Made by a program: the position numbers and the translations under genes
Part shown: positions 1,553-58,676 of the stretch, in pieces
Layout of the letters: the number at the start of each line of letters is the position of its first letter
Position numbering within the stretch: position 1 is the first letter of the stretch
Notes under the pieces: generated by a model
Databases searched by the model: none
Seen by the model: the letters and a program-made list of their open reading frames with translations, nothing else
What the model was told of the DNA's origin: nothing
Virus record (IMG/VR): IMGVR_UViG_2922401287_000007
DNA from: a virus
Length of the DNA: 64,000 bases
Direction: 5' to 3' (one strand)

Positions 1553-1568
1553 TATGCGGAAAGTGACA
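1553..1568. promoter_or_regulatory. TATGCG-N4-GTGACA motif, copy 1
   Basis: TATGCGGAAAGTGACA; same motif at 22275, 50732 and 58661. Confidence 0.55.
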
Positions 1569-1594
1569 TAGCTAAAAAAGTTAGCTGATAAGGC

Positions 1595-1625
1595 CTCGCT
1601 CCGGTTGATCCGGGGCGAGTTTTTT
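1595..1625 (+). terminator. Rho-independent terminator after int
   Basis: CTCGCTCCGG-TTGAT-CCGGGGCGAG hairpin followed by T6. Confidence 0.8.
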
Positions 1626-1666
1626 GTTGGCATCGGGTTCTGGGGCGCAGCGAGGTCGGTGCGAGA

Positions 1667-2148
1667 ATGCATCCGATGCTGCAGCCGATTTTTCCGACCA
1701 AGCTGGCCATCGCTTCAGGAGCCCTGTGGTGCGCGTGGACGGTCGCCGCTGCTTGGTCCATACCGGCCAAATTTCCTCATCAGCGCCTGCGGCTGCTGAT
1801 CCGCCGCCGCCAATTCCGGTGGTTGCTCGCTCGGATCGCCTGCCGCTGCCGCAGGCCTTCGATGATCGCTGGCGGGCTCCAGCCCCAGCTGTGCAGCATG
1901 CGATCATGGCTGAAGAGCCCCAGATCAAGCCAGATAAGGCCAGTGGGCCTCGCTTGAAGCCAAGGCATGCCAAGCGCCATGCTGATCGCGTATGCGGCAG
2001 CAAGGGCCGCCACCATTTCCGCATCGGGCGGCGTAATTCCTGCTTTGCCGCAGCGAGGGATAATCACACGGGGCCACAACCTGCCGCCCATCTTATTGTT
2101 GAGGAAAACAGCTGGCGAACGCTTTACAGCTCGCTGCGCGATCAATAA
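1667..2148 (+). pseudogene. Probable frameshifted small exported protein
   Basis: Signal-peptide-like N-terminus (LAIASGALWCAWTVAAAWS) in one frame; Pro-rich body and basic Cys-containing tail in another; shift near 1765. Confidence 0.3.
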
Positions 2149-2322
2149 CTTTCTTACAACCTTTGAGAGGTCGGAGAAGTTGACTGAGCGCGGACGCGCT
2201 AAGGCGATAGCCGAAGCTGGTAAGAAAATCCCTCGGCTTGAAAGAGCTGTGCCGGTTCGATTCCGGCCGGCCGCACCGATTTTCGTTATCGAAATTCATT
2301 TCTATTCTAGACATTAATAGTC

Positions 2323-3484
2323 ATGGAGTTCATCGACCTCGACCGATATTTCGTACCGCTAAAAGCGGACCAGGAGCCTAGACTCGATATCGGCCGCTTT
2401 GGGGACCTCAATTAAGCGGCTGGCTTGGTTGGGAAGAACTGCGACGCCGCCGCCGCATCATTTTGCTCGCCGAAGCCGCTAGTGGAAAAACAGAAGAGTT
2501 CCGTTATCAGTGCGAGGCTCTGAGAGCGGCGGGCCATCCGGCGTTTTTCTTTCGGATCGAGGAGCTTGCAGAGCAAGGAACGGAAATAGCCTGCACAGGG
2601 AAAGCACAGAGCTTTTCGAGGCGTGGCGAGCTGGCCCGAACCCAAGAGATCACGCACAACATGCGCGTGATGCCATTTTGTCGGCACTCTTGGCACGACC
2701 GGGTGCCGATGCTTACCACGCGATGCAACGGCTCGCGGACGACCCCGTCTTCGCCTTGCGTTCCCATCGCTTTCACGAGCTAGCGCGCGGGAAGGCCGAG
2801 CGCGACGCCGAAAATCCCGCGTGGACCGCGGCGGAAGTCGTCACCTTCGAGCGGCAATTCACGGCGCCCGTCAAAACGGGTGAGGATCTGCTGCGCCTCG
2901 TCATGGGCGTCCTTGCCGATATCGCCCAGAACCTGACAAAGGGCGACGCCACGTCGCGCGCCCTGCTGGAACGCGCAAAGGACGAAGAGGAGGTCCAACA
3001 TTGGCTGGTCGAGCAAATGAACGCGCGCGCTCACGGCCGCTTTCATGCTTTCCGGGAAGCCGAGGTCGCGTTAGGCCACAAGCCGGATGTCATTGCCGCT
3101 TCCACCTCCGCCCCGTGTCAAGTGGCGGTTGAAATCAAGCACGGCGGCAAGAGCTGGTCCGCGCGCGATCTCGAAAACACCCTGCGGACGCAACTCGCGG
3201 AGGATTACCTCAAAGAGGAAAGCCGACGTCATGGCGTTCTCGTTATCACTCACCATCGAGACCGCCGCTGGCAACGCATCGGCGATAACAAGCCGATTTC
3301 CTTTTCCGACCTCATCGCATGGCTATCCGGTATCGCGGCGACGATCACGGAGAATGCCGTAGGCCAGATCAGCGTGCAATGCGCTGGCATTGATGCATGG
3401 AAGAGAGATACCAGCGCCGATCCTCCGAAGGCAACTGAAGCAAAAGCCAAATCTCGCGACAGGCGGCGGCCCGTGGCGTCTTGA
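2323..3484 (+). pseudogene. Remnant of a NACHT/STAND-type ATPase with C-terminal PD-(D/E)xK nuclease-like domain
   Basis: Walker A-like IILLAEAASGKT; frameshifts at ~2400 and ~2590; no Walker B before a jump to a C-terminal E...PD...VEIK segment. Confidence 0.6.
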
Positions 3485-3950
3485 TAGCGTAGGATTTGAT
3501 CCGGCAGCTGGCGGGGAGAAATTCTCGGGAGCTGTACGGTCAACTTCGGGCAGGTCGTGCAGGATGGGCCGCCGCGCCAGTCCGTTGAATTCACCTACAT
3601 GATCATGCCTGCGGGGTTCACCATGCCTGAAGTGCACTTCACTTGGCCCGGCGTCATCATGACTATGACGCCGACTCCGATGAAGACGGAATTCCCGGAC
3701 GCGGGCCACCTGTTCAAGGCCGAGAACCTTCCTTCCCTAAGCCTTTCGCTGGAAGTCACGCGCGGTCAGTTTTCCGACATATAACAATCGGTCCCGTCCA
3801 ATTCTCGGCGCGCAACAGAGCGGCGACATCAAAAACAGCCAGCGCAGCTAAGAACCCAACTGAGGCGGGCCTCCCGCCGGGGTTTCGGCTCGTGTAAAGC
3901 AAAACGGACCACTCCAAAAATCAAAAGGGGCCACTGAAGTTTAGTGGGGA

Positions 3951-4013
3951 TGGAAAGGGGCCAGCACCCGGCCACGAGCCGTCAGTTCCGTCCTCGACGG
4001 TGAACTGAAGGTC
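3951..4013. repeat. Two-box diverged repeat, copy A
   Basis: TGGAAAGGGGCCAGCACCCGGCC-N28-GAACTGAAGGTCC. Confidence 0.6.
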
Positions 4014-9214: not shown

Positions 9215-9656
9215 CCCGGAAACGCCACTTCCTGGAAGCGGAAGGTGTCACGTTGCGTCTACGGGTCGGCATTGCCACGCTGACGGTGACAGACGCCCAG
9301 GGCAACGTGATCGAGCCGCCACAGGCACCCTCCAAGGCTCAGCAATGGATGCGGGCAGCGGCGCTGGAACCGGAATCGGGAGTGCCCTGCGCTACTTGGA
9401 GGGTAAGCCTGGCTGGTTGAGCTGTACAAAGCTTACGAGGCCGTCCGCGATATGCCCAATAGAGGCATATCTAAAGTTGAGATCAAGCGATTTACTCAAA
9501 CGGCCAACGCTGGAGAAAAACACCATCCCAACCAGACAATCAAGCCCCACAAGCGCCCGATGGAGTTATGGGAGGCCCGTGCCTTTATAACCCAGTGGGT
9601 GTCGTCCGCGATTGACGACATTCTTGCGAAGAACCCGATGTGAGGCGGGAATCTGC

Positions 9657-14657: not shown

Positions 14658-14747
14658 TGGTTCCGGTCCTTCGTGCCCGGGGGCCCAGGCCGTCGGCGTG
14701 AGCCGCTCCAGCCTGAGCTATCCGCCCATGGCGACATCAGCCCCTGA
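13446..14747 (+). pseudogene. IS1380-family transposase with foreign C-terminus
   Basis: AAFDGGRLTS, LDIDDT, FRGDGHY and YCARGQAENLIK motifs. Confidence 0.85.
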
Positions 14748-17700
14748 GTCGGTTCTGCAGTGCCTGCCGATTGGCAACGAGGTTGCTGAGGTTCAGCAGG
14801 TCTGGTTCCCGTCCTTGCTCCAATTGCCTAACCAGCGCCCGCGTGCCGTCCACCACGAAGACGCCGCAATCATACCCGTTCCGCTGCTGGGCCATGCGGG
14901 CTGGCTCCAGGCGGAGGTCCAGCCGACCTGCGAGATGTTCTGCATCCTTGTTGTTGAGTCCGCCGTAGGAATCGTAGTGATAGGCGACCGGCCGGCCCCG
15001 GTCGCTGCGATCAACGAACAGCAGCGACCAATGGTTGCCGAGGCTATTAGGATCTTCAGGATCGGTATTAATCACGGGCAGGAACAGGAAGTCGGCTGCA
15101 TCATTACCATTATCATCATCGACGATGCGCTGGAATTCGGTTCGCACGAAGCCATCGTCGTTAGAGCGCAGATAATTTAGGACGATGAGGGGATTCACGA
15201 ACCGCGTCCGGGCGGCGAGATCCGGATGGTTCCTCTGCAAATCCTGCTCCTGGAGCCGGTAATCCCTGTCGATATGCTCGTCGCCCAGCCATTCCGTGTC
15301 CTCGAGCACCAGCCCGCGGCCGTGGGACGAGGCTGTCGGACCTAAAGCCCCGATCTGAGCATCAGCGGAGGTGCTCGGAAACGGCCGTACAGAATTAGCA
15401 TCGTCGCGTGATTCGGACGGCGTGGCCGCAGTCAGATCAACCAATGGAAAACCACGGTAGGTGTCTGAGCGAGCCCTGGCAGCGGGCGCCGGCTCAAAGT
15501 GAGCATCGTCGCGCAACTCGGTCGGCGTGGGCGCATCCAGATCAACAAAAGACTCAAGACCGCCGTAGGTGTCTGACGGAGCCCTGCTGGTTGATGGTGA
15601 GGCCGGCTCTTGCATCTGCCGCCGCGCCAGCTCCTCGCGCAACCACGCCAAAGCTTCATCATCCGAGAAGGCTGGCGCCGGAGAAAGCCCCTGCGGCGAG
15701 CCGGGCTGTCGAACGCCCTGGTGATGGCCCGGTACTGGCCCGGCAAACGGCGGCGGAAAGTCAGGCGCCGGGCTCCAAGCATTGTCACGCAACTCGAACG
15801 GTGCGGGCGGATTCGGATGAACCGCTGCCTCAAGACCGCCTTCGATGTCTGACCAATCAAAGTTGAGCGGCATCTGCGGCGACCAGGTCGAGGTGGACCT
15901 GGCAGGTTCCTGCTCTCCAGCTTGGACTATCTCCTGCGCCTGCTCAGGGGGAACCCCGGGCCGCGGTGGGACATCTCCCACCATCAAACGCAGATCGTGA
16001 TCGTAACCTTCCGGGAGGACCAATGGCTGACTGACAGCTCCCTGCGGCGCGCTGTGCTGCGCAGCGGCGCCGCCGACGTACGTCGCGACCGCATGCGGCG
16101 CCGTGGCATCTTCGTGCCCGCTCGCCTGCATCATCGGCTGCGCCTGCCATGGCGATGCCCCCTGTTGATGGGTGGGGGCCACCGACGTCAGCAGGCGACC
16201 GCCTGAATTGGCGATCTCGCTCAGTTGCCGCTTTCGGAGATCAGCCAGTGCGGCACCGATAGTCGGAGTACCCCCGGCGTCCTTCCTATAGCGCTTAACA
16301 TCTTCATCCAACGTGTTGCCGGAAAGCCGAGCAGCAATGCCCGGCTTGCTGCTTTTACGCAGGTAGTCACTGAAACTGCGTAGAGAAACTGCATACGTCT
16401 TGCTGGTCCCTGTCGCTGCTTCGTTTTTGTACTCTTCGATGAGAGCCACGTCCTGGGGGTGAGGACTTAGCTCAGCGCGGCCTGTGATCAGCACGACTCC
16501 GCCCGTCGACTGGAAGGTCCGGAGATGGTCTATTGCCGGACGGAGTGCCCTGTTATGACCCTTTTCGATGGCCTCGCGCGCATCATCGGTCAGCGACTGG
16601 TCGTCGAGCCGAGCAGCAATCGGATCTTTGTTATTTGCGAAGAGCCAGCGGCCGAAGCTGCGAAGAGAATATACATAGGCGTAGGCGGTGTGGTTGGCGG
16701 CGTTGCCATTGCGGAGGACCTTCTCAAGCCCCGAAATAAGGCGAGCGTCCTCGGAATAAAGAGGCTGCTTGCTGTGCCCTTTCAAAACCCCAGCTGACTG
16801 AGCCGGCTGCAGCGCCGAGGCGGCCGGCATTGCTCCACCACCTCCGCCTGAATTGGCGATCTCGCTCAGCTGCCGCTCGCTGGCAAGGCCGTGCAGATTG
16901 TCTAGGGTCCTCGGCCTCTTCGCTGGCCTCAACTCAGCTGTGTCATGCTCATCGTTGATGAGGACCTCCTCGCTTGGCAGGAGGCTGCTCCTGGCAAGTG
17001 CACCCATCGGCTCGTCCAGGAACTGCTGGCGGTCGTAGTCCCAGTTCAAGGGACGAATGGTCTCTCCGGGATCCAATGACTGGTCATGGCGCGCGGCTGG
17101 CTCGAGAGATGACGACGGGCCGGGTTCGTCCATCAGCCCCAAAAGCAAATCCTGATCGTGGCCTTCTGCAGGAAGCAGCTCCTTTGGCCAACTGCCCGCG
17201 TCCTGCGACGCGCTGTGCTGCGCAGCGGCGCCGCCGACGGGCATCGGCTCCATCAGTGCCGCGTCTTCGGGATCAGGAACGGGGGAAATATGGCGCTCGC
17301 GCTCCATCGCTTTAGCGCCGGCCTGCGATTTTCGGAGACGAGCCAGTGCGGCACCGATATTCGGATTACCCCCGGCGTCCTTCCTATAGCGCTTAACATC
17401 TTCATCCAACGTGTTGCCGGAAAGCCGAGCAGCAATGCCCTTCTTGTTGTTTTCACGCAGGTAGTCACTGAAACTGCGAAGAACACTTGCATACATCCTG
17501 CCGGTCCCTGTCGCTGCTTCGTTTTTGTACTCTTCGATGAGAGCCACGTCCTGGGGGGGAGGATTTAGCTCAGCGCGGCCTGTGATCGGCCCGACTCCGC
17601 CCGTCGACTGGAAGGTCCGGAGACGGTCTATTGCCGGACGGAGTCTCTTGCTATGACCCTTTTCGATGGCCTCGCGCGCATCATCGGTCAGCGACTGGTC

Positions 17701-19167
17701 GTCGAGCCGAGCAGCAATCGGATCTTTGTTATTTGCGAAGAGCCAGCGGCCGAAGCTGCTAAGAGAATATACATAGCCGTAGGCGGTTTGGTTGGCGGCG
17801 TTGCCCTTGATGAGGGCCTCCTCAAGCCCCGAAATAAGGCGAGCGTCCTCGGAATAAAGAGGCTGCTTGCTGTGCCCTTTCAAAACCCCAGCTGACTGAG
17901 CCGGCTGCAGCGCCGAGGCGGCCGGCATTGCTCCACCACCTCCACCTGAATTGGCGATCTCGCTCAGCTGCCGCTCGCTGGCAAGGCCGTGCAGATTGTC
18001 TAGGGGCCTCGGCCTCTTCGCTGGCCTCAACTCAGCTGTGTCATGCTCATCGTTGATGAGGACCTCCTCGCTTGGCAGGAGGTTGCTCCTGGCAAGTGCA
18101 GCCATCGACTCGTCCGGGAACTGCTGGCGGTCGTAGCCCCAGTTCAAGGGACGAATGGACTCTCCGGGATCCGATGACTGGTCATGGCGCGCGGCTGGCT
18201 CGAGAGATGACGACGGGCCGGGTTCGTCCATCAGCTCCCAAAGCAAATCCTGATCGTAACCTTCCGGGAGGACCAATGGCTGACTGACAGCTCCCTGCGG
18301 CGCGCTGTGCTGCGCAGCGGCGTCGCCGACGCGCCACGGCTCCATCAGTGCCGCGTCTTCGAGATCAGGAACTGGGGAAATATAGCGCTCGAACTCCATC
18401 GCTTTAGCGCCGGCCTGCGATTTTCGGAGATCAGCCAGTGCGGCACCGATATTCCGATTACCCCCGGCGTCCTTCCTATAGCGCTTAACATCTTCATCCA
18501 ACGTGTTGCCGGAAAGCCGAGCAGCAATGCCCGGCTTGCTGCTTTTACGCAGGTAGTCACTGAAACTGCGTAGAGAAACTGCATACTGCCTGCCGGTCCC
18601 TGTCGCTGCTTCGTTTTTGTACTCTTCGATGAGAGCCACGTCCTGGGGGTGAGGATTTAGCTCAGCGCGGCCTGTGATCGGCCCGACTCCGCCCGTCGAC
18701 TGGAAGGTCCGGAGATGGTCTATTGCCGGACGGAGGTTCCTGTTATGACCCTTTTCGATGGCCTCGCGCGCATCATCGGTCAGCGACTGGTCGTCGAGCC
18801 GAGCAGCAATCGGATCTTTGTTATTTGCGAAGAGCCAGCGGCCGAAGCGGCGAAGAGAATATATATAGCCGTGGGCGGTGGGATTGGCGACATTGCCCTT
18901 GATGAGGACCTTCTCAAGCCCCGAAATAAGGCGAGCGTCCTCGGAATAAAGAGGCTGCTTGCTCCACCCTTTCAAAACCCCAGCTGACTGAGCCGGCTGC
19001 AGCGCCGAGGCGGCCGGCATTGCTCCACCACCTCCACCTGAATTGGCGATCTCGCTCAGCTGCCGCTCAACGGTCGCCGCTTCTGCGGACGGCGCCGCGG
19101 GTGAACTCTCTTGCGGGCCCGTGCTGTCCGGCTGTTCACGCACCCACTTGATCGAGGGGAAATCCAT
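14737..19167 (-). CDS. Putative type III effector: tandem-repeat protein with C-terminal C48 (Ulp1/SUMO) protease, NopD/Bel2-5/XopD-like
   Basis: WLGDEHI, NHWSLL, YHYDS and QQRNGYDCGVFV catalytic motifs; NLS-like PAKRPR twice; EAR-like LDLRL. Confidence 0.88.
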   Translation of the reverse strand: MDFPSIKWVREQPDSTGPQESSPAAPSAEAATVERQLSEIANSGGGGGAMPAASALQPAQSAGVLKGWSKQPLYSEDARLISGLEKVLIKGNVANPTAHGYIYSLRRFGRWLFANNKDPIAARLDDQSLTDDAREAIEKGHNRNLRPAIDHLRTFQSTGGVGPITGRAELNPHPQDVALIEEYKNEAATGTGRQYAVSLRSFSDYLRKSSKPGIAARLSGNTLDEDVKRYRKDAGGNRNIGAALADLRKSQAGAKAMEFERYISPVPDLEDAALMEPWRVGDAAAQHSAPQGAVSQPLVLPEGYDQDLLWELMDEPGPSSSLEPAARHDQSSDPGESIRPLNWGYDRQQFPDESMAALARSNLLPSEEVLINDEHDTAELRPAKRPRPLDNLHGLASERQLSEIANSGGGGGAMPAASALQPAQSAGVLKGHSKQPLYSEDARLISGLEEALIKGNAANQTAYGYVYSLSSFGRWLFANNKDPIAARLDDQSLTDDAREAIEKGHSKRLRPAIDRLRTFQSTGGVGPITGRAELNPPPQDVALIEEYKNEAATGTGRMYASVLRSFSDYLRENNKKGIAARLSGNTLDEDVKRYRKDAGGNPNIGAALARLRKSQAGAKAMERERHISPVPDPEDAALMEPMPVGGAAAQHSASQDAGSWPKELLPAEGHDQDLLLGLMDEPGPSSSLEPAARHDQSLDPGETIRPLNWDYDRQQFLDEPMGALARSSLLPSEEVLINDEHDTAELRPAKRPRTLDNLHGLASERQLSEIANSGGGGGAMPAASALQPAQSAGVLKGHSKQPLYSEDARLISGLEKVLRNGNAANHTAYAYVYSLRSFGRWLFANNKDPIAARLDDQSLTDDAREAIEKGHNRALRPAIDHLRTFQSTGGVVLITGRAELSPHPQDVALIEEYKNEAATGTSKTYAVSLRSFSDYLRKSSKPGIAARLSGNTLDEDVKRYRKDAGGTPTIGAALADLRKRQLSEIANSGGRLLTSVAPTHQQGASPWQAQPMMQASGHEDATAPHAVATYVGGAAAQHSAPQGAVSQPLVLPEGYDHDLRLMVGDVPPRPGVPPEQAQEIVQAGEQEPARSTSTWSPQMPLNFDWSDIEGGLEAAVHPNPPAPFELRDNAWSPAPDFPPPFAGPVPGHHQGVRQPGSPQGLSPAPAFSDDEALAWLREELARRQMQEPASPSTSRAPSDTYGGLESFVDLDAPTPTELRDDAHFEPAPAARARSDTYRGFPLVDLTAATPSESRDDANSVRPFPSTSADAQIGALGPTASSHGRGLVLEDTEWLGDEHIDRDYRLQEQDLQRNHPDLAARTRFVNPLIVLNYLRSNDDGFVRTEFQRIVDDDNGNDAADFLFLPVINTDPEDPNSLGNHWSLLFVDRSDRGRPVAYHYDSYGGLNNKDAEHLAGRLDLRLEPARMAQQRNGYDCGVFVVDGTRALVRQLEQGREPDLLNLSNLVANRQALQNRLRG
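16203..19070 (-). repeat. Intragenic tandem repeats of the effector (two full ~1.09-kb units plus a 645-nt partial unit)
   Basis: CTGAATTGGCGATCTCGCTCAG anchor at 19038, 17946, 16848 and 16203. Confidence 0.95.
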
Positions 19168-19605: not shown

Positions 19606-20099
19606 CCCGTCTTATTCGTCAGAGGGCGCCTGAGAGGCTGGCGAGCGTGGTGTAAAGCGCTGATGCGGCGTAGGATTCGGTTGCAAAGCCAACCCCATCA
19701 CCTTCAGCCGCGAACACCACGCCCGCCATGACCGATGATACGATTCCGCCCTTCTCGTTTCCAGCCGTTCACGCCAGGAAAGTCACAGCTGCCTTCGATG
19801 GTGGGCGGCTAACCTCGAACGGGGGCGTGATGCTTCTGGCGATGGCCGAGCGGCGTCTCGGCTTGGCCGACAATTTGGCCCGGGTGTTCCCGGATGGCGC
19901 GATCCGACGCGGGTCGTGCACAGCCTGATCGATATGTTCCGCGCGCGCATGTTCGCGATCTGCTGCGGCTACGAGGACGCCGACGACCTCGATCATCTGC
20001 GGTCCGATCCCGCATTCAAGCTGGCCTGCGGACGGCTGCCGGACACGGGTCGCGATCTGTGTTCCCAACCGACGCTGTCGCGGCTGGAGAATGCTCCGC
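19606..20099 (+). mobile_element. IS1380-family fragment (copy 2, 5' part only)
   Basis: Near-identical to copy 1; 1-nt deletion near 19894; identity stops at 20099. Confidence 0.9.
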
Positions 20100-20199
20100 T
20101 TTTGGCCCATCTCCTCGGAAAGGGTGATCGCAGGCATTCCCCCATCATCTTCCGGACCCGGAAGGCTCCACCAGAACGATCTGCGCTCTGAACACGGGA

Positions 20200-20554
20200 A
20201 ATCTTGGCCGTAGTCGCGGTCCTCGCCCTGCAGCTGCACCACCTCGACGCGGTCAGGATGCTCGGAGATGCCCTTGCGAAAAATCTCCTCCTGCTCCTCT
20301 GGCCTGATCATCCTGCTCACCGTCCACGCCTCACCGAGGTAGACGTACCGGATCACATCTTTGAAGTCGAAGAAGACGCGGATCATGGCCGCCGCCATGT
20401 CTTTTCCGAGATAGAGTGGATGCGGCTCGATGAGGGTCTCGCCATCGGATGTAATCGCGTGCCACATCGGCGCGATCTCGGCGCGCCTGGCGAAGTGGGC
20501 CTCGCAAAACTGCGAGGCCCGGTCGAACATTATACGCAACTCTTTTTCGCTCAT
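20200..20554 (-). pseudogene. Phage hypothetical protein, 3'-truncated
   Basis: MSEKELRIMFDRASQF...RDYGQ, then unrelated and IS-antisense sequence. Confidence 0.6.
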
Positions 20555-20955
20555 GCTTCGACTCCGTAGGCGGTGCCAACCGTGCGCGCCAAGGCGATCA
20601 CGGCGCGGCGGTGCGTCTGATCGAGCCGCAGCATCGCCTCGTTGATCTCGACGCCATCCTTGGTTGCCAAGAAGCCCGCGAGCTTCGTCACCGTCGGCGG
20701 CTTTTTGCTGCCGACCAGATCGCCCATGAAGAACGACACGTCGCTTTCGAGCACCGTGGCGATCTGCTGCAGGCGTCCCGTGCTGACGCGGTTGACGCCC
20801 TTCTCGTATTTCTGGACCTGCTGAAAACTGACGCCCAGCTTATCGGCCAGCTCGGATTGGCTGATATGCAATTCCAGTCTGCGTTGCCGCAGCCGGTTGC
20901 CGATGATCTTGTCGATCCCGGTGACCGTGCGCGGGTGGGTTTTGCGTGCTGGCAT
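20551..20955 (-). CDS. XRE-family HTH transcriptional regulator
   Basis: IGNRLRQRRLELHISQSELADKLGVSFQQVQKYEKGVNRVS. Confidence 0.9.
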   Translation of the reverse strand: MPARKTHPRTVTGIDKIIGNRLRQRRLELHISQSELADKLGVSFQQVQKYEKGVNRVSTGRLQQIATVLESDVSFFMGDLVGSKKPPTVTKLAGFLATKDGVEINEAMLRLDQTHRRAVIALARTVGTAYGVEA

Positions 20956-21321
20956 CTACTTTCTCCTTGAGTGACCGTTGGTACGCTTCTTCGGTTTGGA
21001 TTGCGCTTTGCGCTCTTGCCGCGCCAGCCAATCGGCGGCCACCTTGCGCTCGGACTCGACGTCGATCTCCTTTTTCTTGACGAACTCTTCCTCGTAACCG
21101 AGCGAGGTGATCACGGCAGCGATGGTCGCATGCTGCGGCGATCTCGTCGTGCCGTTGAACCAATTGTCGAGCGTCGAAGTCGAGACGCCCGAGATTTCGT
21201 GAACGATCTTCAGCTTCTTGATCAAACCCTCGTCCTGTATCAGCGTGCGCATCTTGTCGATGACCGGATTTTTGTCGATGTAGGAGTACGTCCGGTAAGT
21301 TCGCAAAAACCCCCTAGCCAT
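20956..21321 (-). CDS. HTH DNA-binding protein
   Basis: HEISGVSTSTLDNWFNGTTRSPQ. Confidence 0.75.
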   Translation of the reverse strand: MARGFLRTYRTYSYIDKNPVIDKMRTLIQDEGLIKKLKIVHEISGVSTSTLDNWFNGTTRSPQHATIAAVITSLGYEEEFVKKKEIDVESERKVAADWLARQERKAQSKPKKRTNGHSRRK

Positions 21322-21967
21322 TGTGCGCTGCTCCCGTCATCTCGATCTTATGTCCCTTCGCCGTCAGTTCGTAGCCGCTGCCGTTCCTCTTGATCAGACC
21401 GCCGCGCTTGGCGCGGTCCAGCACACCTGCAACACTCTTGGGCGACATGCCCTTCGCCGCCATGTGCTTGCGCAAATCGGCAGGCGACACCGGGCCTGCT
21501 TCAAGCGCAGCACGCAGCAAGATGTTGCCTGAGCCGGGAGAGGCGCGGCCCGCAGGCCCATGCTTCACATCAGGAGCTGGCAGCGCAGGCACTGCGCCGC
21601 CGAGCTGAGCCCGCGCCTGGGCGGTGAGTTGGTGCACGCCCTTATTCGCACCAGCTTCAGCAAGGCCTTTCTTGCGCAGCTGATGCACAGCCCCGTAAGC
21701 GCGCGTCTTGTTTCCGCCGAGTGCGGCGCTGATCTCGCTGATGTGCTTCGGCCCCTCCAACAACAGCTTGACGGTGAGCTCCTCAGCGCTCTCGCCGTTG
21801 CGAGCCTTCGCAGCTGCTTCCTCTAGCTGCTTCCGTCCAGCTCCTTGACCGCCGTGGCCGAGGTCGAGATGCAGGTCTACTATTCCGGGCATGTCATTTA
21901 GTTTGCGCAGCACGGGGCCGAGCGCGATCTCTTCTACTTCGAGTCTGATAGGAAACGTTTTAGGCAT
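21314..21967 (-). CDS. Protein with two winged-helix-like domains
   Basis: AYGAVHQLRKKGL and GVLDRAKRGGLIKRNGSGYELT. Confidence 0.6.
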   Translation of the reverse strand: MPKTFPIRLEVEEIALGPVLRKLNDMPGIVDLHLDLGHGGQGAGRKQLEEAAAKARNGESAEELTVKLLLEGPKHISEISAALGGNKTRAYGAVHQLRKKGLAEAGANKGVHQLTAQARAQLGGAVPALPAPDVKHGPAGRASPGSGNILLRAALEAGPVSPADLRKHMAAKGMSPKSVAGVLDRAKRGGLIKRNGSGYELTAKGHKIEMTGAAHNG

Positions 21968-22233
21968 CGCTTTGATCACCTTTGCGTTGATCAGGTTTCA
22001 GGTCGGCGATGTGAGATTGGGGCAGAAGGGTAAAGGCAGCTTGAGATGCCGCACGAGTTTTTCCTCGCCTTTGTCGCACACACTTTTTGCCAAAGGGCGT
22101 CTCGTGCTGCCCCAGCGAGAACGAGACCGACCCCAAAGGAGCTGTTAAAATAAGTGACACCGTGTCGGTTGTATAGCGCAGCAAAATATCTTCGGTCGTG
22201 GGCGAGTACACACTGCCACCAATGCGTGATTTC

Positions 22234-22259
22234 AAAAACGAGCCCCGCCGAAGCGGGGC
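22234..22259 (-). terminator. Terminator of the tail operon
   Basis: Minus strand GCCCCGC-TTCG-GCGGGGC-TCGTTTTT. Confidence 0.8.
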
Positions 22260-22274
22260 CAAAGCTAGGGAGAA

Positions 22275-22290
22275 TATGCGGTTTGTGACA
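22275..22290. promoter_or_regulatory. TATGCG-N4-GTGACA motif, copy 2
   Basis: TATGCGGTTTGTGACA. Confidence 0.55.
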
Positions 22291-22314: not shown

Positions 22315-24213
22315 TCATGAGCTTGCTGCTTTCAGCGCGTCGATCTCCGCGCGCAGCTCATCGTTCTGCGTCGATAGCCGCTGCACCGCCGACCACAGTG
22401 TCGTCAGCATGTAGCGGTCGTTGATCGCCTTGATCGACATCTCCTCTTCGCCGAGCGCTTCGGCTTCCTTGCTGTCCAGCTCCGGGATGTCGATGTGCTT
22501 GAGCGCCGCGCGCATCACACGGTCCACAGCCGGGATGCCAATGTCGCGAACGGCAATCGGCACGAGCAGTTCGACATCCTGTGCATTCCAGCCGTACAGC
22601 GTTTCGTTGGCGACATCACCGCGCCCGAAAAACATCTCGCGCGCCGCTGGGTTCGCTGGCGTGAATTCGTTCACCGTCAGCGCATTGACGACGGCGAGCG
22701 CGGCAGCAGGATCAGCCTGCCTGGTGACGGCTTTGACGCGGGCGTCAGACGTTTGCCAAGCGCCTGCGGCAAGGAAGGCGCCGGTGTTGCCGTAGAACGA
22801 AAAGGTGGTGCCGGACAGGTTCTCGCCGCTCATGCCGTAAAGGCTGGTGCCGTTCGCCCATCCGAGGACCCCGGCGAAGCCTGGTCCATTGGCCCGAAAG
22901 TCACCGGCATAGCTTGCGGTTGCGCCGATGACGCTCAACGCTGTTATATTGGTGGCGTTCGGTTGGTTGATCGACAGCCCACCGGAACTCGCAAAAACCG
23001 CCCTGACGATGCCAGAGAAGCAGATGTTGATCGGGATCGTGCCAGCGCTCAGATTGATGTTGTAGCCGCTCGCATCGACGCCAAGCGTTCCGTAGGTCAC
23101 GCCGCCTGTGCGGTAAAGCGTGATCGCCCCGAAACCATTGTCGCCGGTCATGGCAATCGACTTCGGCTGCCACTGACCCTGCTGCGTCAGCGTCGCGGTC
23201 GTATTCAGCGTCATCTGACCGCCAGCGGCGACCGAAGCGGGTGACGCAAAGAAATTCAGATTGCCTGTCGGTGGATCATCAATGATCGCGACACCATAAC
23301 CGGCGCTCTGCGCTAACCATTGCGAGCCATCGGCGCTCACGAAGACATTGAACCCCAAGCTGGCATCAATCGACATTGAATAGCTGCCGACAGACGCGGG
23401 GTAGGCCGGTGCAGGTCGCACTGAGCCGACGCGCAGCGCGCCGGTCATTCGGTCGCCCGCCTTGATGACACGCGAGGTGTCGGATGGGTGAACGTGATCC
23501 TCGCGCGAGAAGTTACCCGAGACGCCGACAGCGCCGACGCTGGCCATGATCGGCGTAGCGGTGCCTGGACTGCCTGCACCGGGCACGCCTTGAACGCCCT
23601 GCGGGCCTTGCGGACCAACCAGCGACGTGCCTGACGGCCACGCGCCGCCAGCCTTCGGCCCATAGATGAAGTTGGTTGCGGTGTTGATGTAGAAGTTGCC
23701 GTTGACGCCGATCCCGGCAGTCGGCGCAACGGTGCCGTACAGCACGGTGTTGCCATCGACGCCCGGATTGCCCTGCGGCCCTTGCACGCCCTGCGCGCCT
23801 TGCGGGCCGGTATTGCCGATCACGCCTTGCGGGCCGGTATTGCCCTGCACGCCCTGCGGCCCCGGCGGCCCCGGCACTGTCGAGGCTGCGCCGGTCGGGC
23901 CGACAGGGCCTTCCGGGCCGACAGGGCCTTGGATGCCTTGCGCGCCCTGCGGCCCCTGCGGGCCTGTCAGGAGCACAGGCGCAGGCCAGATGCCGCCTTC
24001 CTTCGGCCCGTAGAATTGATGGGTCTCCTCGTTGTAGTAGAAGTCGCCATCGACGCCGAGCGAGCTGGTGGGATCGCTGGTGCCGCTCAGCACCGAATTG
24101 CCGCGCGCTCCAGGCGGGCCCTGATCGGGTGAGATGATGATCGCAACATCGTCCTGAATGATCTCGACCTCGCCGGTCACATCCAGCGTCTGCGTGATCG
24201 AAAAGTCGTTCAT
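22315..24213 (-). CDS. Tail fibre with collagen-like repeats and C-terminal intramolecular chaperone (S74-like)
   Basis: G-X-Y runs; SDARVK...GWNAQDV...coiled-coil tail. Confidence 0.8.
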
Positions 24214-48036: not shown

Positions 48037-48230
48037 TCGCGCCGCAGCACTTCAAGGGTCATGCCCGCGCCGAGCACGATGAGGCCGACGCTCTCGGGGA
48101 TCAGCTTGCGGAAGTGATCCTCGATCCATCTGGCCTGCTCGCGGCTCAGCACCTGATCGCATTTCACGACCAGTCGGTCGCCCTCGCGCAGCTCCAGCTT
48201 TGCAATTTCAAATCTGGTGGTTTCGGTCAT
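48033..48230 (-). CDS. Small hypothetical protein (65 aa)
   Basis: ATGA overlaps on both sides; KLELREGDRLVVK. Confidence 0.65.
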   Translation of the reverse strand: MTETTRFEIAKLELREGDRLVVKCDQVLSREQARWIEDHFRKLIPESVGLIVLGAGMTLEVLRRE

Positions 48231-48859
48231 CGGTCGTCCTGGTACGCGCGGCAAATTTCCGCCAGCGCGTTGCCGTTCTGGTTTTTGTTTTCCGAGGCCT
48301 CGCTCGGCGGTCCGAGGATCGCCGATGCGCGCTCTATCGCCTTCGCTACCAGCTCGGCCTGCGTCTCGTGCAGGATGAAGGTCATCTGCTGGAAGGGCGA
48401 GCGCTCGCCGTCGCTGATGATCGGCATGCCGCCAAGGCCTTCGACGCCTATGCCCATCTCGCGCAGCTCGGTCTCGCTGAAGCCAGTCAGATCGGCGAGG
48501 CCGAGCGAGGCGAGGTCGTTCAATTCGACGCGCAGCAGCGCATCGTCCCACTTGCCGTTCTCGGTCAGCTTGTTGTCGGCGATCAGATAGGCCCGCTTCT
48601 GCGCATCTGACCAGCCGCGAGCTACCATCGTCGGCACCTGATCGATGCCCAACTGCTCCGCAGCCAGCACTCTCCCGTGGCCAGCTATGATCGACCCGGC
48701 TTCATCGATCAGCACCGGGATGGTCCAGCCCCACTCGCTGATCGAGGCCGCGATCTGCTCGATCTGCTCCTCGGAATGCAGGCGGGCGTTGCGGGCGTTC
48801 GGCACCAGCTCGCTGATCGGGCGGCGCGATACCTGATCCGCAGGCCAGTTCCGGGCTAT
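48227..48859 (-). CDS. ParB/Srx-like N-terminal domain protein of the DNA-modification cluster
   Basis: NARNARLHSEEQIEQIAASI, IIAGHGR and IADNKL motifs; best RBS precedes ATA at 48859, so the start is uncertain. Confidence 0.8.
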   Translation of the reverse strand: MARNWPADQVSRRPISELVPNARNARLHSEEQIEQIAASISEWGWTIPVLIDEAGSIIAGHGRVLAAEQLGIDQVPTMVARGWSDAQKRAYLIADNKLTENGKWDDALLRVELNDLASLGLADLTGFSETELREMGIGVEGLGGMPIISDGERSPFQQMTFILHETQAELVAKAIERASAILGPPSEASENKNQNGNALAEICRAYQDDR

Positions 48860-49451
48860 TTCGGACCCTCCGAAATGGCTGTTTTTGTCGGGACAAACGC
48901 CCTTTTTGCTCGACTGCTGCATTCCGGCTCCCATGGTCACGCCACTGAAAACGCTGCGTTTTTGGCGTTGAGAAGGATCTTCCACGCGGCAACGTGATAC
49001 CGATGGAAAGGGCCGTTTTGATCAGTAAGTTAGCCGGGATCGCTTCCTGCTAACTGCGTCAGGTTCGGAGCGGTATTTTCGGAGCAAGCCTATGATCATA
49101 TTGCAGATTTTGCAGGCGGAGAACTTTCGTCCTTGAGCGTTTTCTGAATGTGCAGGCGCTAATTTTGGAGCGCCGCCAGCGCTCGGACCCGTCTCGCCAA
49201 CAGTTAGCGATCCTCCCCCGGCCCCCGTGGCATATTATTCCCCCATGTTTTCAATTGGTTAGATCGCATTCGAGGCGCGAACGATGCGAATGCATGGTCA
49301 AATTCGGACTACCGGAAGGCCCAGACCGGGCCCAAACGGCCTGATCTGGCTCTCCTTGCGCCCCGTTCACTCGCAATAGAACCAACTTCCACGCAAATAG
49401 CGTCGCTGTATCAATGGCTTGTGGCTACCATTCGGAGCCCACGATGGGGCA

Positions 49452-50110: not shown

Positions 50111-50716
50111 TCACTCTGGAACTGGAAAATCAATTCCCGGCAGCGGCGGGAAGATGTGATGTGGACCTGTCTGGACCTCATTGGTCAAAATCTGTCGAAA
50201 AATATTTTGTCGCAGGCGGGCTCGGGCCTCGGCATAGGACATGCCGCGCCCTTGCTGCTTGGCTTCCAGCCGCCACGCGCGATAGGCCGAATTGAACCAC
50301 GCCAGCTCGCCTGCGGCTTGCGCCTGCGCGATCCGCTGCTCGATGTATGCGACCGCCGTGCGCGCCCGCGCGAGCACGGTGTCGTGCTCGGTAAGCGCAA
50401 TGCCCATATGCGCGGCGACGTTCTCGACCTTGCGCTGCGCGGTCCTGGCGGTGGCTACCAGCAGGCCATCGTCGCCTCGCGAAAGGCTGGCGTTGACCTC
50501 GCGGCAGATCAGCCTCGCGTCGGTTTTATCCTTCACCCAGTACGCGCAGGTGATCTGCAATGCGGGCCATCTGCGGCGCAAGGCCAGCAGGCTGTGCAGC
50601 AGATCGCGCGAGCATGAGACGAAAGCACCTGCAGGCAGCGCGGCAACATAGATCGCGACCACACCGTAGATCGCCAGATATTCCCGCACAGCTCCTCTCG
50701 GCAGCATCAGTGCCAT
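50111..50716 (-). CDS. Phage hypothetical protein
   Basis: 201-aa ORF with GAGG RBS. Confidence 0.6.
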   Translation of the reverse strand: MALMLPRGAVREYLAIYGVVAIYVAALPAGAFVSCSRDLLHSLLALRRRWPALQITCAYWVKDKTDARLICREVNASLSRGDDGLLVATARTAQRKVENVAAHMGIALTEHDTVLARARTAVAYIEQRIAQAQAAGELAWFNSAYRAWRLEAKQQGRGMSYAEARARLRQNIFRQILTNEVQTGPHHIFPPLPGIDFPVPE

Positions 50717-50731
50717 CGGGTGCCTCGATCT

Positions 50732-50747
50732 TATGCGGTTTGTGACA
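50732..50747. promoter_or_regulatory. TATGCG-N4-GTGACA motif, copy 3
   Basis: Identical over 17 nt to copy 2; degenerate copy TGTGCACAATGTGACA at 50791-50806. Confidence 0.55.
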
Positions 50748-50862
50748 GAACAGCGCAGATCAAAAATATTTCATCGGGAAAAAACGGCAATGTGCACAAT
50801 GTGACACCGATCACGTTCACGCATCTGAGAAATCGCCCCAATCCGCTCATCTAAGAAATTCT

Positions 50863-51861
50863 GTGATGACGACGCTTGAGTTCGGGGTGGAATTGTTGAG
50901 TTCGGGTGGAATTGTCAGGGTTCAGCAGCAACTTGAGTTTGCCGACTTCGAAGTGCTGCGCAACGCCGTGCAAGATGCGCCAACACCAATGGACATCGTG
51001 CAGCTTGGGCAAGGCGAGATGGCCGGGACGCTGGCTCACCTGTCGGTTGGCTCGGTCGGCATCTCGACTGGCTCCTTCACGCGCGGCGTGCGCCAGCGCG
51101 GCGTTCTCAGCACGAACCGATGGACTTTCGGCATGCTGCTCGGCAGCTCGGCCTTGCTGCAGCATTTCGAGGCGACACCGGGCGATCTCATTGTGATCGC
51201 GCCCGACCAGGAACTCTATTCGCGCTTCATAAACGGCAACCATTATGCAACGACGCTCGTCGCGCCGGACGAGCTGTTCGCGTTTCTCGCCACCCAACCC
51301 GGTGCGCAGGATGTCACGGCGTGGCACCAGCCGACTACGATGCTGGCCAGTGATCGGGCGACGGTTGCTGCCAACGTCAAACAGATGTCGATGATATTGG
51401 CTGCTCTCACTGAACATGGGCCGAAGCTGTCGGTTGACGCCGCCGACTTTTTCAAGCGCAACATTCTGGAGCTGGTGACCGCGCCCGTGCGCGACACCGT
51501 CCGCTATAGGGGTGCGCGGGTGCTCGCGGCAGCAAAGCTGGTGCGGGAGGTGGACCGCTACATGATTGATGCAGGCTCCAGACCCATCCACATTTCCGAA
51601 CTTTGCGCGCACTTTAGCGTGGGCCGTCGAACGCTGCATCGAGCTTTCAACGAGGTGGTTGGCATCTCGCCGATTGCTTTCATGCGCCGCAAGCGGCTCG
51701 GTGACGTGCACACTGTGCTGCTGACGGGCGGGCCTGACGCGACGATCAAGGATGTTGCAATCGAGCATGGCTTTATCGAACTCGGCAGATTTGCTGGCGC
51801 TTATCGACGGTTGTTCGGCGAGTTGCCGTCGCAGACCTTGCGGCGTGCTCAACACCGCTGA
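50863..51861 (+). CDS. AraC-family transcriptional regulator (moron)
   Basis: ISELCAHFSVGRRTLHRAF and FIELGRFAGAYRRLFGELPSQTL. Confidence 0.92.
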   Translation: MMTTLEFGVELLSSGGIVRVQQQLEFADFEVLRNAVQDAPTPMDIVQLGQGEMAGTLAHLSVGSVGISTGSFTRGVRQRGVLSTNRWTFGMLLGSSALLQHFEATPGDLIVIAPDQELYSRFINGNHYATTLVAPDELFAFLATQPGAQDVTAWHQPTTMLASDRATVAANVKQMSMILAALTEHGPKLSVDAADFFKRNILELVTAPVRDTVRYRGARVLAAAKLVREVDRYMIDAGSRPIHISELCAHFSVGRRTLHRAFNEVVGISPIAFMRRKRLGDVHTVLLTGGPDATIKDVAIEHGFIELGRFAGAYRRLFGELPSQTLRRAQHR

Positions 51862-52577: not shown

Positions 52578-52599
52578 CTCGTCCTCCTCGGTTCCATCC

Positions 52600-52750: not shown

Positions 52751-52753
52751 AAG

Positions 52754-56163: not shown

Positions 56164-56626
56164 GCGGCCCTCCCTTCTTGCGGACCACGCGACCGTATCG
56201 CTCCAGTGCATCGGCATGGGCCAGCTTGGCCAATGCCTCGCTGCGAAGGCGGGAGACATTGAAGGCGATATCGGCAGCAGACAGCTCTTCGAGCCTCACA
56301 TAGACAGGCTCTTCATTTTTTCCCGCGGTACGCACTTTCGGGTAACGCCACTGCAGGTCTGGAAACAGCGCATGCTGACGTGATCCCTCATCGTCGTCGT
56401 CGCTCGCCTTGCCGCCGTCCTCGAAAAGATCGCGCAACACTGAGCGGGCAATCTGGCGCAGCTCCAGATGGCAACCCAGCTGCACAAGCATCGGCGCTAC
56501 TTTCTTCGGATCAAGTTCAAGCATCGCCTCGGTCGCAACCCAGCTCGGGCTGATGCTAGTCTCGCTGCGGCGTTGGTCGATGATGCGGACGATAATGTTG
56601 ATCAGTACTTGCGCCTCAGGTGCCAT
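56132..56626 (-). CDS. Phage hypothetical protein
   Basis: 164-aa ORF in the operon. Confidence 0.6.
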   Translation of the reverse strand: MAPEAQVLINIIVRIIDQRRSETSISPSWVATEAMLELDPKKVAPMLVQLGCHLELRQIARSVLRDLFEDGGKASDDDDEGSRQHALFPDLQWRYPKVRTAGKNEEPVYVRLEELSAADIAFNVSRLRSEALAKLAHADALERYGRVVRKKGGPHAAPHPAAAP

Positions 56627-57218
56627 CGGTTGCTCCTATTCGTTTGAGCCACGCAGCGACGCGCGGCGCGAGGGTGTGAACATCGTCCAGCATGTCGGGC
56701 GTCATGGTTTCGAGAATGTCTTCCGGATGGCGGTGCAGCAGCCCATCGTCGCGGGCGAAATCCATCAGCCGACCCCATAACCACAGCGCTTCCTTGGCGA
56801 CTGGCGTGATCTTCGGCGGCTCGGTGGCGCGGATGATGCCGTTGGTGGTCGGCATCTGCGTCTGATCGGTCAGCGCAGCCTCGAATTGCTTCTCGGGAAT
56901 CGCCGCCAGCTTTTGCCAGTTGGCGGACTGCTTGTGGGTGATGCCGTTGGCTTTCAAAGAACTGCTGCCCTCGGGGTAGCGGTTCTTTTTGCTGGGCTGG
57001 CCGCCCTTCGCCTTCGGCAGCTTGCGCAGCAACTCGCCAGCTTTGCGCTCGGCGCGCAGGCGTATTTCGCAGGCCTGTCGCTCAGCCTCGGTGTTGTGCG
57101 CCTGGCGCGAATAGTGCTCTAGCGCCACCGCCCTGTCGCGGATCGCTTTGACTTCATCGACCTTGTAAGCGGCACCGATTGCGCGGCACATCGCATCGTA
57201 TTTCGCCAACTGCGTCAT
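56616..57218 (-). CDS. Phage hypothetical protein
   Basis: YDAMCRAI...EIRLRAERKAGELL. Confidence 0.65.
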   Translation of the reverse strand: MTQLAKYDAMCRAIGAAYKVDEVKAIRDRAVALEHYSRQAHNTEAERQACEIRLRAERKAGELLRKLPKAKGGQPSKKNRYPEGSSSLKANGITHKQSANWQKLAAIPEKQFEAALTDQTQMPTTNGIIRATEPPKITPVAKEALWLWGRLMDFARDDGLLHRHPEDILETMTPDMLDDVHTLAPRVAAWLKRIGATDGT

Positions 57219-57799
57219 GCTCGCCCCTCCCACGAAATGCGCGAGAGCAGCGTCGGCCCTCGATGGCGGCGATCCCAGACGATCCAGCAGAAGGCCATCG
57301 CGCTCACGGCGCGGCGGCCCTTCCAGCCAGCCCGATGCATCATCGGCAGGCGCTGGCGGAAGACGTAGACTCGCGCGGGCGGCTGCTCATCGAGACAGAA
57401 CATCCGTGCTCGGCCAGCTGCGTGGCAGGGATGGCCAGCCTCAAGGAAGCCGAGCCGCATCAGCATAGCGACGTAAGGGCTCAGCTCGATGGCATGCGCG
57501 GCGAAGCGCGCTGCGATCTGGAATGGCGGATTCGTCACGATGCCGCGCGTCAGCTTCGGCATGCGCTCGCTGATCAGGAAGTCGCGGCCTCGCGCGATGT
57601 CGCTGGTCGCTACGCGATGGCCAGCTCGGCGCAGCACGCGGCTGATCGCACCGTTGCCGTCTGCGGGCTCCCAGATGCGGCGCGGCAATTTCTCGACGCT
57701 CAGCAGGGCATAAACGGCAACCGATGGGGTCTCATAGAGATCGCGCCCGCGCACAGCGCGCGGATGCGCCTTCGATTGCGTCGAGAGCGCCACCATCAC
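57215..57799 (-). CDS. Putative amino-methyltransferase (NPPF type)
   Basis: DLYETP, IWEPADGNGAI and IVTNPPF motifs. Confidence 0.75.
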   Translation of the reverse strand: MMVALSTQSKAHPRAVRGRDLYETPSVAVYALLSVEKLPRRIWEPADGNGAISRVLRRAGHRVATSDIARGRDFLISERMPKLTRGIVTNPPFQIAARFAAHAIELSPYVAMLMRLGFLEAGHPCHAAGRARMFCLDEQPPARVYVFRQRLPMMHRAGWKGRRAVSAMAFCWIVWDRRHRGPTLLSRISWEGRA

Positions 57800-58245
57800 T
57801 GCACCTCGAACCTCGAGCGCAAGATTCCGGCTTGCTTCAGGGTGGCGACGGCATCATCGAGCGAGCTGGTGACGAGCACCGCGAAGCCACAGGCGACGAG
57901 ATGCGCCAGCACTTCACTCTGATCTTCCGACACGCGCCCCGTCTTGAAGCGCTTCAGCTCCAGCCAGAACACGTGCGCGTTGGGGCCGACGAAAATAAAA
58001 TCCGGCCAGCCTGGCATCGCGCCCATGCGCTGCAGTCGCTGACCGCTCAGCGAGTATCGCCTGCCGGTGCGTGGATCAACGCGATGCTCGCGCGCTTCGC
58101 CGATCGGCAAGTGCGTGAACTTCCAATGCGGGTTAATCCAGCGCTTGCAGATGTCAGCGAGCGTAGCGTGCGTTGCGAACTCCAGCGGCGGCGGCGGCGC
58201 GATGCCTCGTTGCCTCTTGCCCTTGAACAGCGATAGTTGGCGCAT
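57796..58245 (-). CDS. VRR-NUC-like nuclease
   Basis: GWPDFIF...WLELKR...SEDQ. Confidence 0.8.
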   Translation of the reverse strand: MRQLSLFKGKRQRGIAPPPPLEFATHATLADICKRWINPHWKFTHLPIGEAREHRVDPRTGRRYSLSGQRLQRMGAMPGWPDFIFVGPNAHVFWLELKRFKTGRVSEDQSEVLAHLVACGFAVLVTSSLDDAVATLKQAGILRSRFEVQ

Positions 58246-58266
58246 GGCGGCTCCCTCCGCGCTTCA

Positions 58267-58518
58267 TCAAGCGGCCTGTTCGTTGTTGTTTTCCGTTGTG
58301 CCGTAGAAGCCCCAGAGCGAGATCGGCGCAAAGTAGCCTTCGTCCGCGAGCGCGGCGCGCATACAAAAATAATATTTGCTCGGGAAGAGTCCGCGATACC
58401 TGCGCCAATTGCAGACAGCGGCGCACGTCTGGCCGGTGATGCGACCGACAGCCACAGGGCCGCCGAGCGCATCGACAACATCGTTGAATGACCAGAGTGG
58501 TTGTAGAGGCCGCGTCAT
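58267..58518 (-). CDS. Cro-like HTH protein
   Basis: VVDALGGPVAVGRITG...AVCNWR; first gene of the leftward operon. Confidence 0.7.
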   Translation of the reverse strand: MTRPLQPLWSFNDVVDALGGPVAVGRITGQTCAAVCNWRRYRGLFPSKYYFCMRAALADEGYFAPISLWGFYGTTENNNEQAA

Positions 58519-58660
58519 GATGGCGGCATGCTGGGCTTCAAATTATATTTCAGTCAAATGCGCGAGCCGGTCTTCATTGGCCGCACGCGAGCGCAAGGCT
58601 GAGGCCAGATAAGTTCAGCTAGGTCCACATCAGCTCAGGTCGCCGCAAACTATTTTTTTG

Positions 58661-58676
58661 TATGCGAAAAGTGACA
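58661..58676. promoter_or_regulatory. TATGCG-N4-GTGACA motif, copy 4, in the divergent control region
   Basis: TATGCGAAAAGTGACA. Confidence 0.55.

Follow-up and report, generated by a model that had tools for sequence, protein, structure and literature searches.

The 64,000-nucleotide stretch of viral DNA deposited as IMG/VR record IMGVR_UViG_2922401287_000007 (referred to below as the window) carries a short asymmetric sequence, TATGCG-N4-GTGACA, at widely separated intergenic positions of a prophage. These boxes are real, specific to one prophage family and conserved in position, and they co-occur with a single family of regulators in prophages and in bacterial chromosomes. Judged from the sequences, they probably are operator boxes of the AraC/XylS-family regulator encoded at 50863–51861 on the + strand (332 amino acids as listed), the predicted binder, whose gene lies directly downstream of two of them. 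As a kind of regulator site this is ordinary, but the placement of the boxes at the borders of phage gene blocks is unusual.

Four exact copies are present in the window, all on the + strand, at 1553, 22275, 50732 and 58661, as the first-pass annotation of this DNA had stated; 100 dinucleotide-preserving shuffles of the window yielded none. A scan permitting two mismatches found six matches where 4.1 were expected and added only 50791 and a minus-strand match at 9246, which is within chance. With a weight matrix derived from the phage sites, the four exact copies score 24.7–26.8 bits and the copy at 50791 scores 20.5 bits; the rest of the window stays at the level of shuffle noise, and just five sites in the 64 kb reach at least 20 bits. 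The copy at 50791, described earlier as degenerate, is thus real, having both this score and a positional counterpart in a related prophage (G380) that shares its first box, TGTGCA. The sequence GTGACACCG, which had been pointed out at two places, is part of this copy at 50801, whereas at 22154 it is treated as chance, because it is a half-match only and its position is kept neither in G380 nor in a second relative, G048. We refer to the five sites as S1 to S5 from left to right. No similarity was found beyond the 16-mer around the four exact copies, and a longer repeat or a miniature mobile element is ruled out, since the copies are alike over the 16-mer only. The refined consensus is T-R-T-G-C-R, N-W-W-W, G-T-G-M-C-A. 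TATGCG and GTGACA lie 10 bp apart centre to centre, and the spacer is A/T-rich in every phage copy (GAAA at 1553, GTTT at 22275 and 50732, AAAA at 58661). The motif is asymmetric: its halves are not mutual reverse complements, and dyad symmetry is absent. In line with the first-pass annotation, neither the 16-mer nor the conserved flanks contain the patterns of LexA (GTTC-N7-GTTC or GAAC-N7-GAAC), CtrA (TTAA-N7-TTAA) or FixK (TTGA-N6-TCAA). Compared by eye with consensus sequences, the box gave no convincing match to the sites of IHF, ParB/parS or DnaA, and it is not palindromic although the window encodes a ParB_N protein (48227–48985).

Genes in the window were called from codon-position GC together with Pfam, and the four exact copies have the intergenic placements reported earlier. 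S1 (1553–1568, +; 24.9 bits) occupies the 3′ untranslated stretch of the tyrosine integrase gene int (12–1547, +; Pfam Phage_integrase), where it begins 5 nucleotides (nt) past the stop codon (1545–1547) and precedes a bidirectional-looking terminator (1595–1619). S2 (22275–22290, +; 26.8 bits) is found at the far end of a 28-kb late operon for packaging, head and tail, which runs on the minus strand from 50716 down to a tail-fibre-like gene with collagen repeats (22315–24213, −; Pfam Collagen, E 1e-8). It lies between the stop of this last gene (22315) and the minus-strand terminator of the operon (22241–22260), about 100 bp upstream of a conserved promoter-like element that belongs to a minus-strand block of helix-turn-helix (HTH) genes. 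S3 (50732–50747, +) and the variant S4 (50791–50806, +) share the divergent intergenic region between the AraC-family gene and the first gene of the late operon (50111–50716, −), which has no assigned function. S3 is 16 nt from the ATG of this late gene (50716) and 131 nt upstream of the AraC-family gene, in the orientation of the latter; S4, located 59 nt further right, is oriented in the same way and precedes the AraC-family open reading frame (ORF) by 72 nt. S5 (58661–58676, +; 24.7 bits), in the divergent control region of the early genes (58518 to about 58800), points towards the −35-like TTGACG of a predicted rightward early promoter, 33 nt upstream of this hexamer.

To compare the window with bacterial genomes, the nearest genome (G001, 10.4 Mb) and 150 other genomes of the genus were searched, and the reversed pattern served as control. 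G001 contains eight exact copies of the motif against none of the control. Seven of them fall in its two copies of the prophage: the syntenic prophage has four, the second late-region copy carries two at its ends, and one follows an int paralog of 78% identity; the eighth, inside a gene, is probably a chance match. The 150 other genomes gave about 30 matches, or about 0.2 per genome, which is about equal to the reversed control, and almost all of these have G/C-rich spacers. The genus background is thus at control level, and the motif is not common genome-wide outside prophages, a possibility that the first-pass annotation had named as damaging to its proposal. Searched as a relaxed pattern, the refined consensus (T-R-T-G-C-R/N-W-W-W/G-T-G-M-C-A) had 24 matches in five genomes and none for the control. 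No close relatives were found among sequenced phages.

The prophages of G048 and G380 share int, the HTH block, the late-start gene and early genes with the window at 55–90% protein identity, and the boxes are kept in both, so that the motif does not lack conservation in relatives, the other outcome that had been named as adverse. In a loose scan, both have two boxes upstream of the late-start gene and boxes at the tail-fibre end, the G048 copy at the place of S2; in G380 there are two copies, both inverted, which belong to a 42-bp tandem repeat at the opposite side of the terminator. The distance from the late-gene ATG to the counterpart of S3 is 19 nt in G380 and 67 nt in G048. In G380 the counterpart of S4 has the same first box and is identical at 14 of 16 positions, compared with 7–8 of 25 in its flanks, and that of S5 is identical at all 16, with 11–12 of 25 in the flanks. 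At the S5 spot of G048 the first half is deleted; a full box lies some 400 bp beyond it and some 40 nt ahead of the exonuclease ATG. Across the sites of both relatives, 11–16 of 16 positions are identical, compared with 3–16 of 25 in the sequence next to them; the boxes stand out as conserved islands within diverged surroundings. As a separate observation, G380 has an extra small winged-helix-like gene between its S3-type and S4-type boxes (C3, about 1086400–1086910; 73090–73599 of the reverse complement), so that each of these boxes precedes a + strand gene of its own, and a similar small gene stands ahead of the AraC gene on an IMG/VR contig (L166).

Conservation is different for the integrase flank. 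The int 3′ flanks of G048 and G380 can be aligned with that of the window except for a segment of about 22 bp, which they lack and which holds S1. This copy of the motif is therefore lineage-specific; apart from the window, an S1-type copy was seen after the int paralog of G001. The earlier suggestion that the motif ties the integrase to the same phage regulon consequently has weak support. Synteny in three further genomes is the better evidence that int belongs to the prophage family, with syntenic int genes of 74–76% identity in the G048 and G380 prophages. Integrase arm-type and att sites cluster in the attachment region beside int. The motif was rejected as such a site, since its other copies are 21, 49 and 57 kb from int and the int-flank copy is missing in two prophages that keep int.

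The boxes follow the AraC-family gene, both inside and outside this prophage family. Orthologs occupy the same place in G048 (60% identity) and G380 (55%), each with two boxes upstream. A genus-wide protein search detected AraC homologs in 167 of 401 genomes, a tally that includes G017, which is flagged as unpublished and on which no other claim rests. In a tree of the homologs, a mobile-element clade (n = 7; support 100/99) is set apart from a chromosomal clade (n = 23). For a test of association the three prophage loci that had defined the motif were set aside, leaving 27 loci with 105 kb in total. The degenerate pattern occurs 19 times in them, the reversed control not once; 18 of the 19 matches are upstream of the AraC-family gene and in its orientation, corresponding to 18 of the 27 independent loci. 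No other phage marker protein was found in the 27 loci, which makes the AraC-family gene their only common factor. Among 30 loci with homologs of the late-start gene, a box of at least 20 bits was present only in the five that come from AraC-bearing prophage lineages; the other 25, which are without the AraC gene, are also without the motif and score at most 13.6 bits.

The chromosomal paralogs are 37–40% identical to the phage protein and are located beside sulfatase genes. Their box has G at position 2, A at 6 and C at 14, and thus differs from the phage box at three of 16 positions, with GTGCCA where phage boxes prefer GTGACA; on the phage matrix it still scores 20.9–24.1 bits. It is situated in the divergent region common to the AraC paralog and genes for formylglycine enzyme (FGE)-sulfatase or arylsulfatase. 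In G001 a box also occurs 373 nt upstream of an operon of FGE-sulfatase and sulfatase genes with no adjacent regulator gene (C1:9171314–9179329; L141). From its gene content, the paralog with its box beside sulfatase genes looks like an uncharacterised sulfatase regulon. The chromosomal box is strongly conserved in more than 20 genomes (L115–L138); TGTGA stands before it, as does a GCTAGA element about 25 nt upstream. Conservation of the predicted recognition helices extends over both the phage and the host clade, and no clear pattern of covariation was found between box variants and recognition-helix residues.

The protein encoded at 50863–51861 has the features that define the AraC/XylS family, according to profile matches and a structural model: a C-terminal domain of about 100 residues with two HTH motifs and an N-terminal regulatory or dimerisation domain of the cupin type, which is present in many, although not all, members (e.g., AraC, RhaR and ToxT). 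Pfam HTH_18 matches over profile positions 1–80 of 80 (E 2e-19; 69.9 bits against a cutoff of 33.6), HTH_AraC scores at its cutoff, and there is a weak full-length match to AndR-like proteins in NCBIfam. The DNA-binding domain matches a solved AraC-family domain, PDB 3mn2, with an E of 4e-18. An AlphaFold model computed from 30 homologs has a predicted local distance difference test (pLDDT) score of 88 and consists of a cupin barrel, a helical linker and a double HTH; the modelled β-barrel (residues 18–133) has pLDDT values above 90, and helices 244–331 superpose on 3mn2 with a TM score of 0.87. Foldseek searches with the model returned full-length matches to CuxR, ToxT and Rns and domain matches to AraC (2arc/2aac) and RhaR. 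The extreme 5′ end of the listed ORF contains two tandem copies of a 20–21 bp unit (50876–50917; GAGTTCGGGGTGGAATTGTT, then GAGTTCGGGTGGAATTGTC). Homolog alignments begin 12–26 residues into the protein, and pLDDT is below 50 for residues 1–15 of the model; translation may therefore start a few codons downstream of the listed position, which could place the repeat in the leader.

For the AraC-family regulator as binder, a mechanism can be outlined that would account for the form of the site. Each of the two HTH units would read one 6-bp element, with the elements one helical turn apart across the A/T-rich spacer, which would explain the asymmetry of the box. S3 and S4 would constitute the control region of the regulator gene itself and, at the same time, of the divergent late operon, an arrangement like that of araC and araBAD. 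A predicted sigma-70-like promoter that reads into the AraC-family gene, GTGACA-17-AATATT (50742–50770, +), is the only promoter-like match in 50500–51000 (9 of 12 consensus positions), and its −35-like hexamer is the second half of S3, which would thus overlap the −35 element of this araC-like promoter. S4 abuts a weak minus-strand −35-like hexamer that was read by eye and is below the scanner threshold. S3 would also separate the ribosome site of the first late gene from any late promoter upstream of it: its distance from the late-gene ATG is short throughout (16 nt in the window, 19 nt in G380 and 67 nt in G048), which should put it downstream of the late promoter wherever this is. From this position, the bound protein would promote its own synthesis and hinder transcription into the late operon. 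In the early region, the predicted rightward promoter (TTGACG, 17 nt, CGAAAT; 58709–58738, +) is conserved in G380 and G048; it was read from the sequence and not listed by the generic promoter scan. The centre of S5 would lie near −76 of the predicted early start, and a position about 76 bp upstream is typical of upstream-acting activators. S2, finally, would lie ahead of the promoter region that serves the HTH genes. Our favoured reading of these positions is a ligand-responsive gate that would drive its own gene, hold back the late operon in the lysogen and modulate the promoters of the early genes and the HTH block, but this assignment of signs is tentative and has a greater chance of being wrong than right. 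In a more far-reaching version, the temperate phage would have borrowed a paralog of a small-molecule-sensing AraC regulator of its host and put it to use as a master gate. Boxes lie at either end of the 28-kb late operon, near the early promoter and in the int flank, and access to the structural genes would depend on a metabolite that the cupin domain senses; as the phage box is nearly the same as that of the host paralog, two-way cross-talk between prophage induction and the host sulfatase regulon would result. We regard this version as unlikely.

Several observations weigh against the AraC-family protein as the binder of the boxes. S1, S2 and S5 are isolated single boxes, with no second half-site within 100 bp, which is unusual for dimeric AraC-type proteins. 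The promoter assignments given above are consensus matches only. The orientation and exact position of the boxes vary among relatives, as seen in the inverted tail-end copies of G380 and the displaced early box of G048. Nine of the 27 homolog loci, including the chromosomal paralog of G001 itself, have no box within 1.5 kb. In addition, boxes persist in G001 where the phage regulator is damaged or absent. The AraC gene of its syntenic prophage is split (C1:5529170–5530121; L113) into parts for residues 1–156 and 190–332, with about 41 nt missing, while the window gene is intact. In the second copy of the late region (C1:24322–25550; L107, L067), an IS3-family insertion sequence (IS) element (OrfA/OrfB) is found 12 nt to the right of the S3 box, and no AraC gene was detected within 16 kb. 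This persistence could reflect recent decay.

A further difficulty is that, within phages alone, the AraC protein is confounded as binder with two of its neighbours. In G145 (also present as an IMG/VR viral contig), G294, G056 and a metagenomic viral contig in IMG/VR, the AraC gene adjoins homologs of the HTH_3 protein encoded at 20551 and of the protein encoded at 20956, with one box between. Another prophage protein, such as HTH_3 (20551–20955), the product of 20956–21321 or the TrmB-like protein (21314–21979), might therefore bind the boxes while the AraC gene is a mere neighbour, and S2 is indeed just upstream of the HTH gene block in the window, in G048 and in G380. However, a near-identical box is present at 18 chromosomal and other AraC-homolog loci that encode none of the HTH-block proteins. 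Moreover, dimers of HTH_3/XRE and winged-helix proteins usually read palindromes, and the box is without dyad symmetry. Binding by one of these proteins thus appears improbable. The earlier proposal of an operator or activator site for a phage regulator accordingly finds comparative support, but the AraC-family protein to which the comparison points is absent from the candidates it listed (the proteins at 20551, 20956, 21314, 58267 and 61688, and Int).

Alternatively, the functional binder could be the chromosomal AraC paralog of the sulfatase/FGE locus; the prophage boxes would in that case connect phage promoters to the host regulon, with the phage copy as a competitor, mimic or backup. The small difference between host and phage boxes and the good scores of the former on the phage matrix are compatible with this idea, as are the mixed host and phage type of the G048 prophage boxes, the persistence of boxes in G001 beside a broken phage gene and the host box in front of the FGE-sulfatase and sulfatase operon. 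Yet prophage boxes track the phage-clade gene and not the host paralog, which about 40% of the genomes carry; the phage clade is well separated from the chromosomal one; and the preference for GTGACA distinguishes phage boxes from the GTGCCA of the host. We give this explanation a low probability, slightly below that of binding by a neighbouring phage protein.

Very improbable, in our estimate, is that the motif is not a regulator site at all but an alternative-sigma promoter core, a recombinase site or a short patch of homology that mosaic recombination of phages has left where modules meet. Read on the opposite strand, the host version is TGGCAC followed after 4 nt by TGCA, a little like a −24/−12 element. 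Sigma-54 promoters, however, have GG and GC exactly 10 nt apart (TGGCAC-N5-TTGC), a spacing that is invariant; the host version has 8 nt between them and the phage version has GT instead of GG, and a sigma-54 promoter was rejected. A plain sigma-70 promoter does not fit all copies either, as a −10-like hexamer at the right distance exists only for S3. Recombination between copies is suggested by S2 and S3, which are identical direct repeats on either side of the late operon, and by the second prophage of G001, where sequence identity stops 12 nt after S3. This break, however, is the IS3-family insertion, and the elements in which the AraC gene and the HTH block are adjacent are not simple deletion products of S2 and S3, an origin that neither gene order nor orientation fits. 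Relics of such junctions would also leave the box upstream of chromosomal AraC paralogs unexplained.

Between about 1.6 and 19.7 kb of the window lies a cargo region full of IS elements that includes a methylase and a 1476-amino-acid protein with a C48 protease domain. This protein (14737–19167, −) combines a C-terminal Ulp1/C48 protease domain with integrase-SAM-like repeats, has transposase genes on either side and, in its predicted domain content, resembles a type III effector of the NopD type. The conserved minus-strand block of four genes, several with DNA-binding domains, spans 19769–21979 and comprises the TrmB-like winged-HTH gene (21314–21979), 20956–21321, the HTH_3 gene (20551–20955) and 19769–20554. 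Replication-type genes occupy 51.8 to 58.5 kb on the minus strand, and the early operon, which encodes a YqaJ-like exonuclease and an ERF recombinase, starts near 58.8 kb on the + strand. Directly upstream of the gene for an 83-amino-acid DNA-binding protein (58267–58518, −) is a conserved stretch, TTGACT...ATATAATTT (58519–58560), with counterparts in G048 and G380; its position about 40 nt ahead of the ATG of this gene suggests a near-leaderless leftward early promoter. On the other side, the similarity of the exonuclease to that of G380 starts at about 58796, upstream of the first in-frame ATG, GTG or TTG (58880), and the region 58751–58880 may thus either contain an unusual start codon or be alike at the DNA level.

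The proposed operator has clear parallels among known systems. Sites of AraC, MarA and XylS are asymmetric and consist of two boxes about 10 bp apart centre to centre, which are read by a double HTH. Like the I1/I2 sites of AraC, the marbox of MarA/SoxS/Rob and the XylS boxes at Pm, the sites described here are asymmetric, 16–17 bp long and made of two elements with an A/T-rich spacer, and as in AraC/XylS operators they are found in a divergent regulator/operon region, one of them overlapping a −35-like hexamer. They differ in box sequence, and three of the five boxes are single and tens of kb apart at the borders of gene blocks; moreover, the candidate controlled unit is a phage late operon and not a catabolic or stress operon. 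Asymmetric sites dispersed over a prophage also recall the stoperators of Cluster A mycobacteriophages, where dozens of repressor sites have an orientation that follows transcription. Here, too, the sites are dispersed in short intergenic gaps, some of them downstream of promoters where a bound protein could block elongation. In contrast to stoperators, the putative binder is of the AraC type and not an immunity repressor, and orientation is independent of transcription; a stoperator system was rejected since there are five sites only, S1 and S2 are opposite relative to the genes they follow, and the tail-end copies of G380 are inverted.

The chromosomal paralog has the same domain architecture as the phage protein, conserved recognition helices and an upstream box in the same orientation, and the divergent regulator/operon layout of the phage mirrors that of the host paralog and its sulfatase operon. 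It nevertheless belongs to a separate clade and is linked to sulfatase maturation genes, not to phage genes. A precedent for an AraC-family transcription factor carried by a prophage is AppY of the E. coli prophage DLP12, which is reported to act on host genes (PMC10057817). The regulator described here, by contrast, has its candidate cognate boxes inside the prophage and a family of chromosomal paralogs with almost the same box. In our literature search, we found no description of the box, of an AraC-controlled phage late operon in this bacterial group or of the sulfatase-linked paralog.

The boxes and the AraC-family protein provide a concrete candidate pair of regulator and operator for this prophage family, whose host is a soil or symbiotic alphaproteobacterium with a large genome of high GC content; together with the NopD-like effector, these genome features suggest Bradyrhizobium. 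To our knowledge, phage regulation in this bacterial group is almost unstudied. AraC-type proteins usually are controlled by ligands, and since the boxes bracket the late operon, a chemical signal could gate phage production instead of, or besides, DNA damage. The near-identical box at the sulfatase-linked paralog of the host points to possible cross-talk in the regulation of the two genomes, phage and bacterial. Because the cargo region includes a type III effector-like gene, induction and transfer of the prophage may also bear on symbiosis traits.

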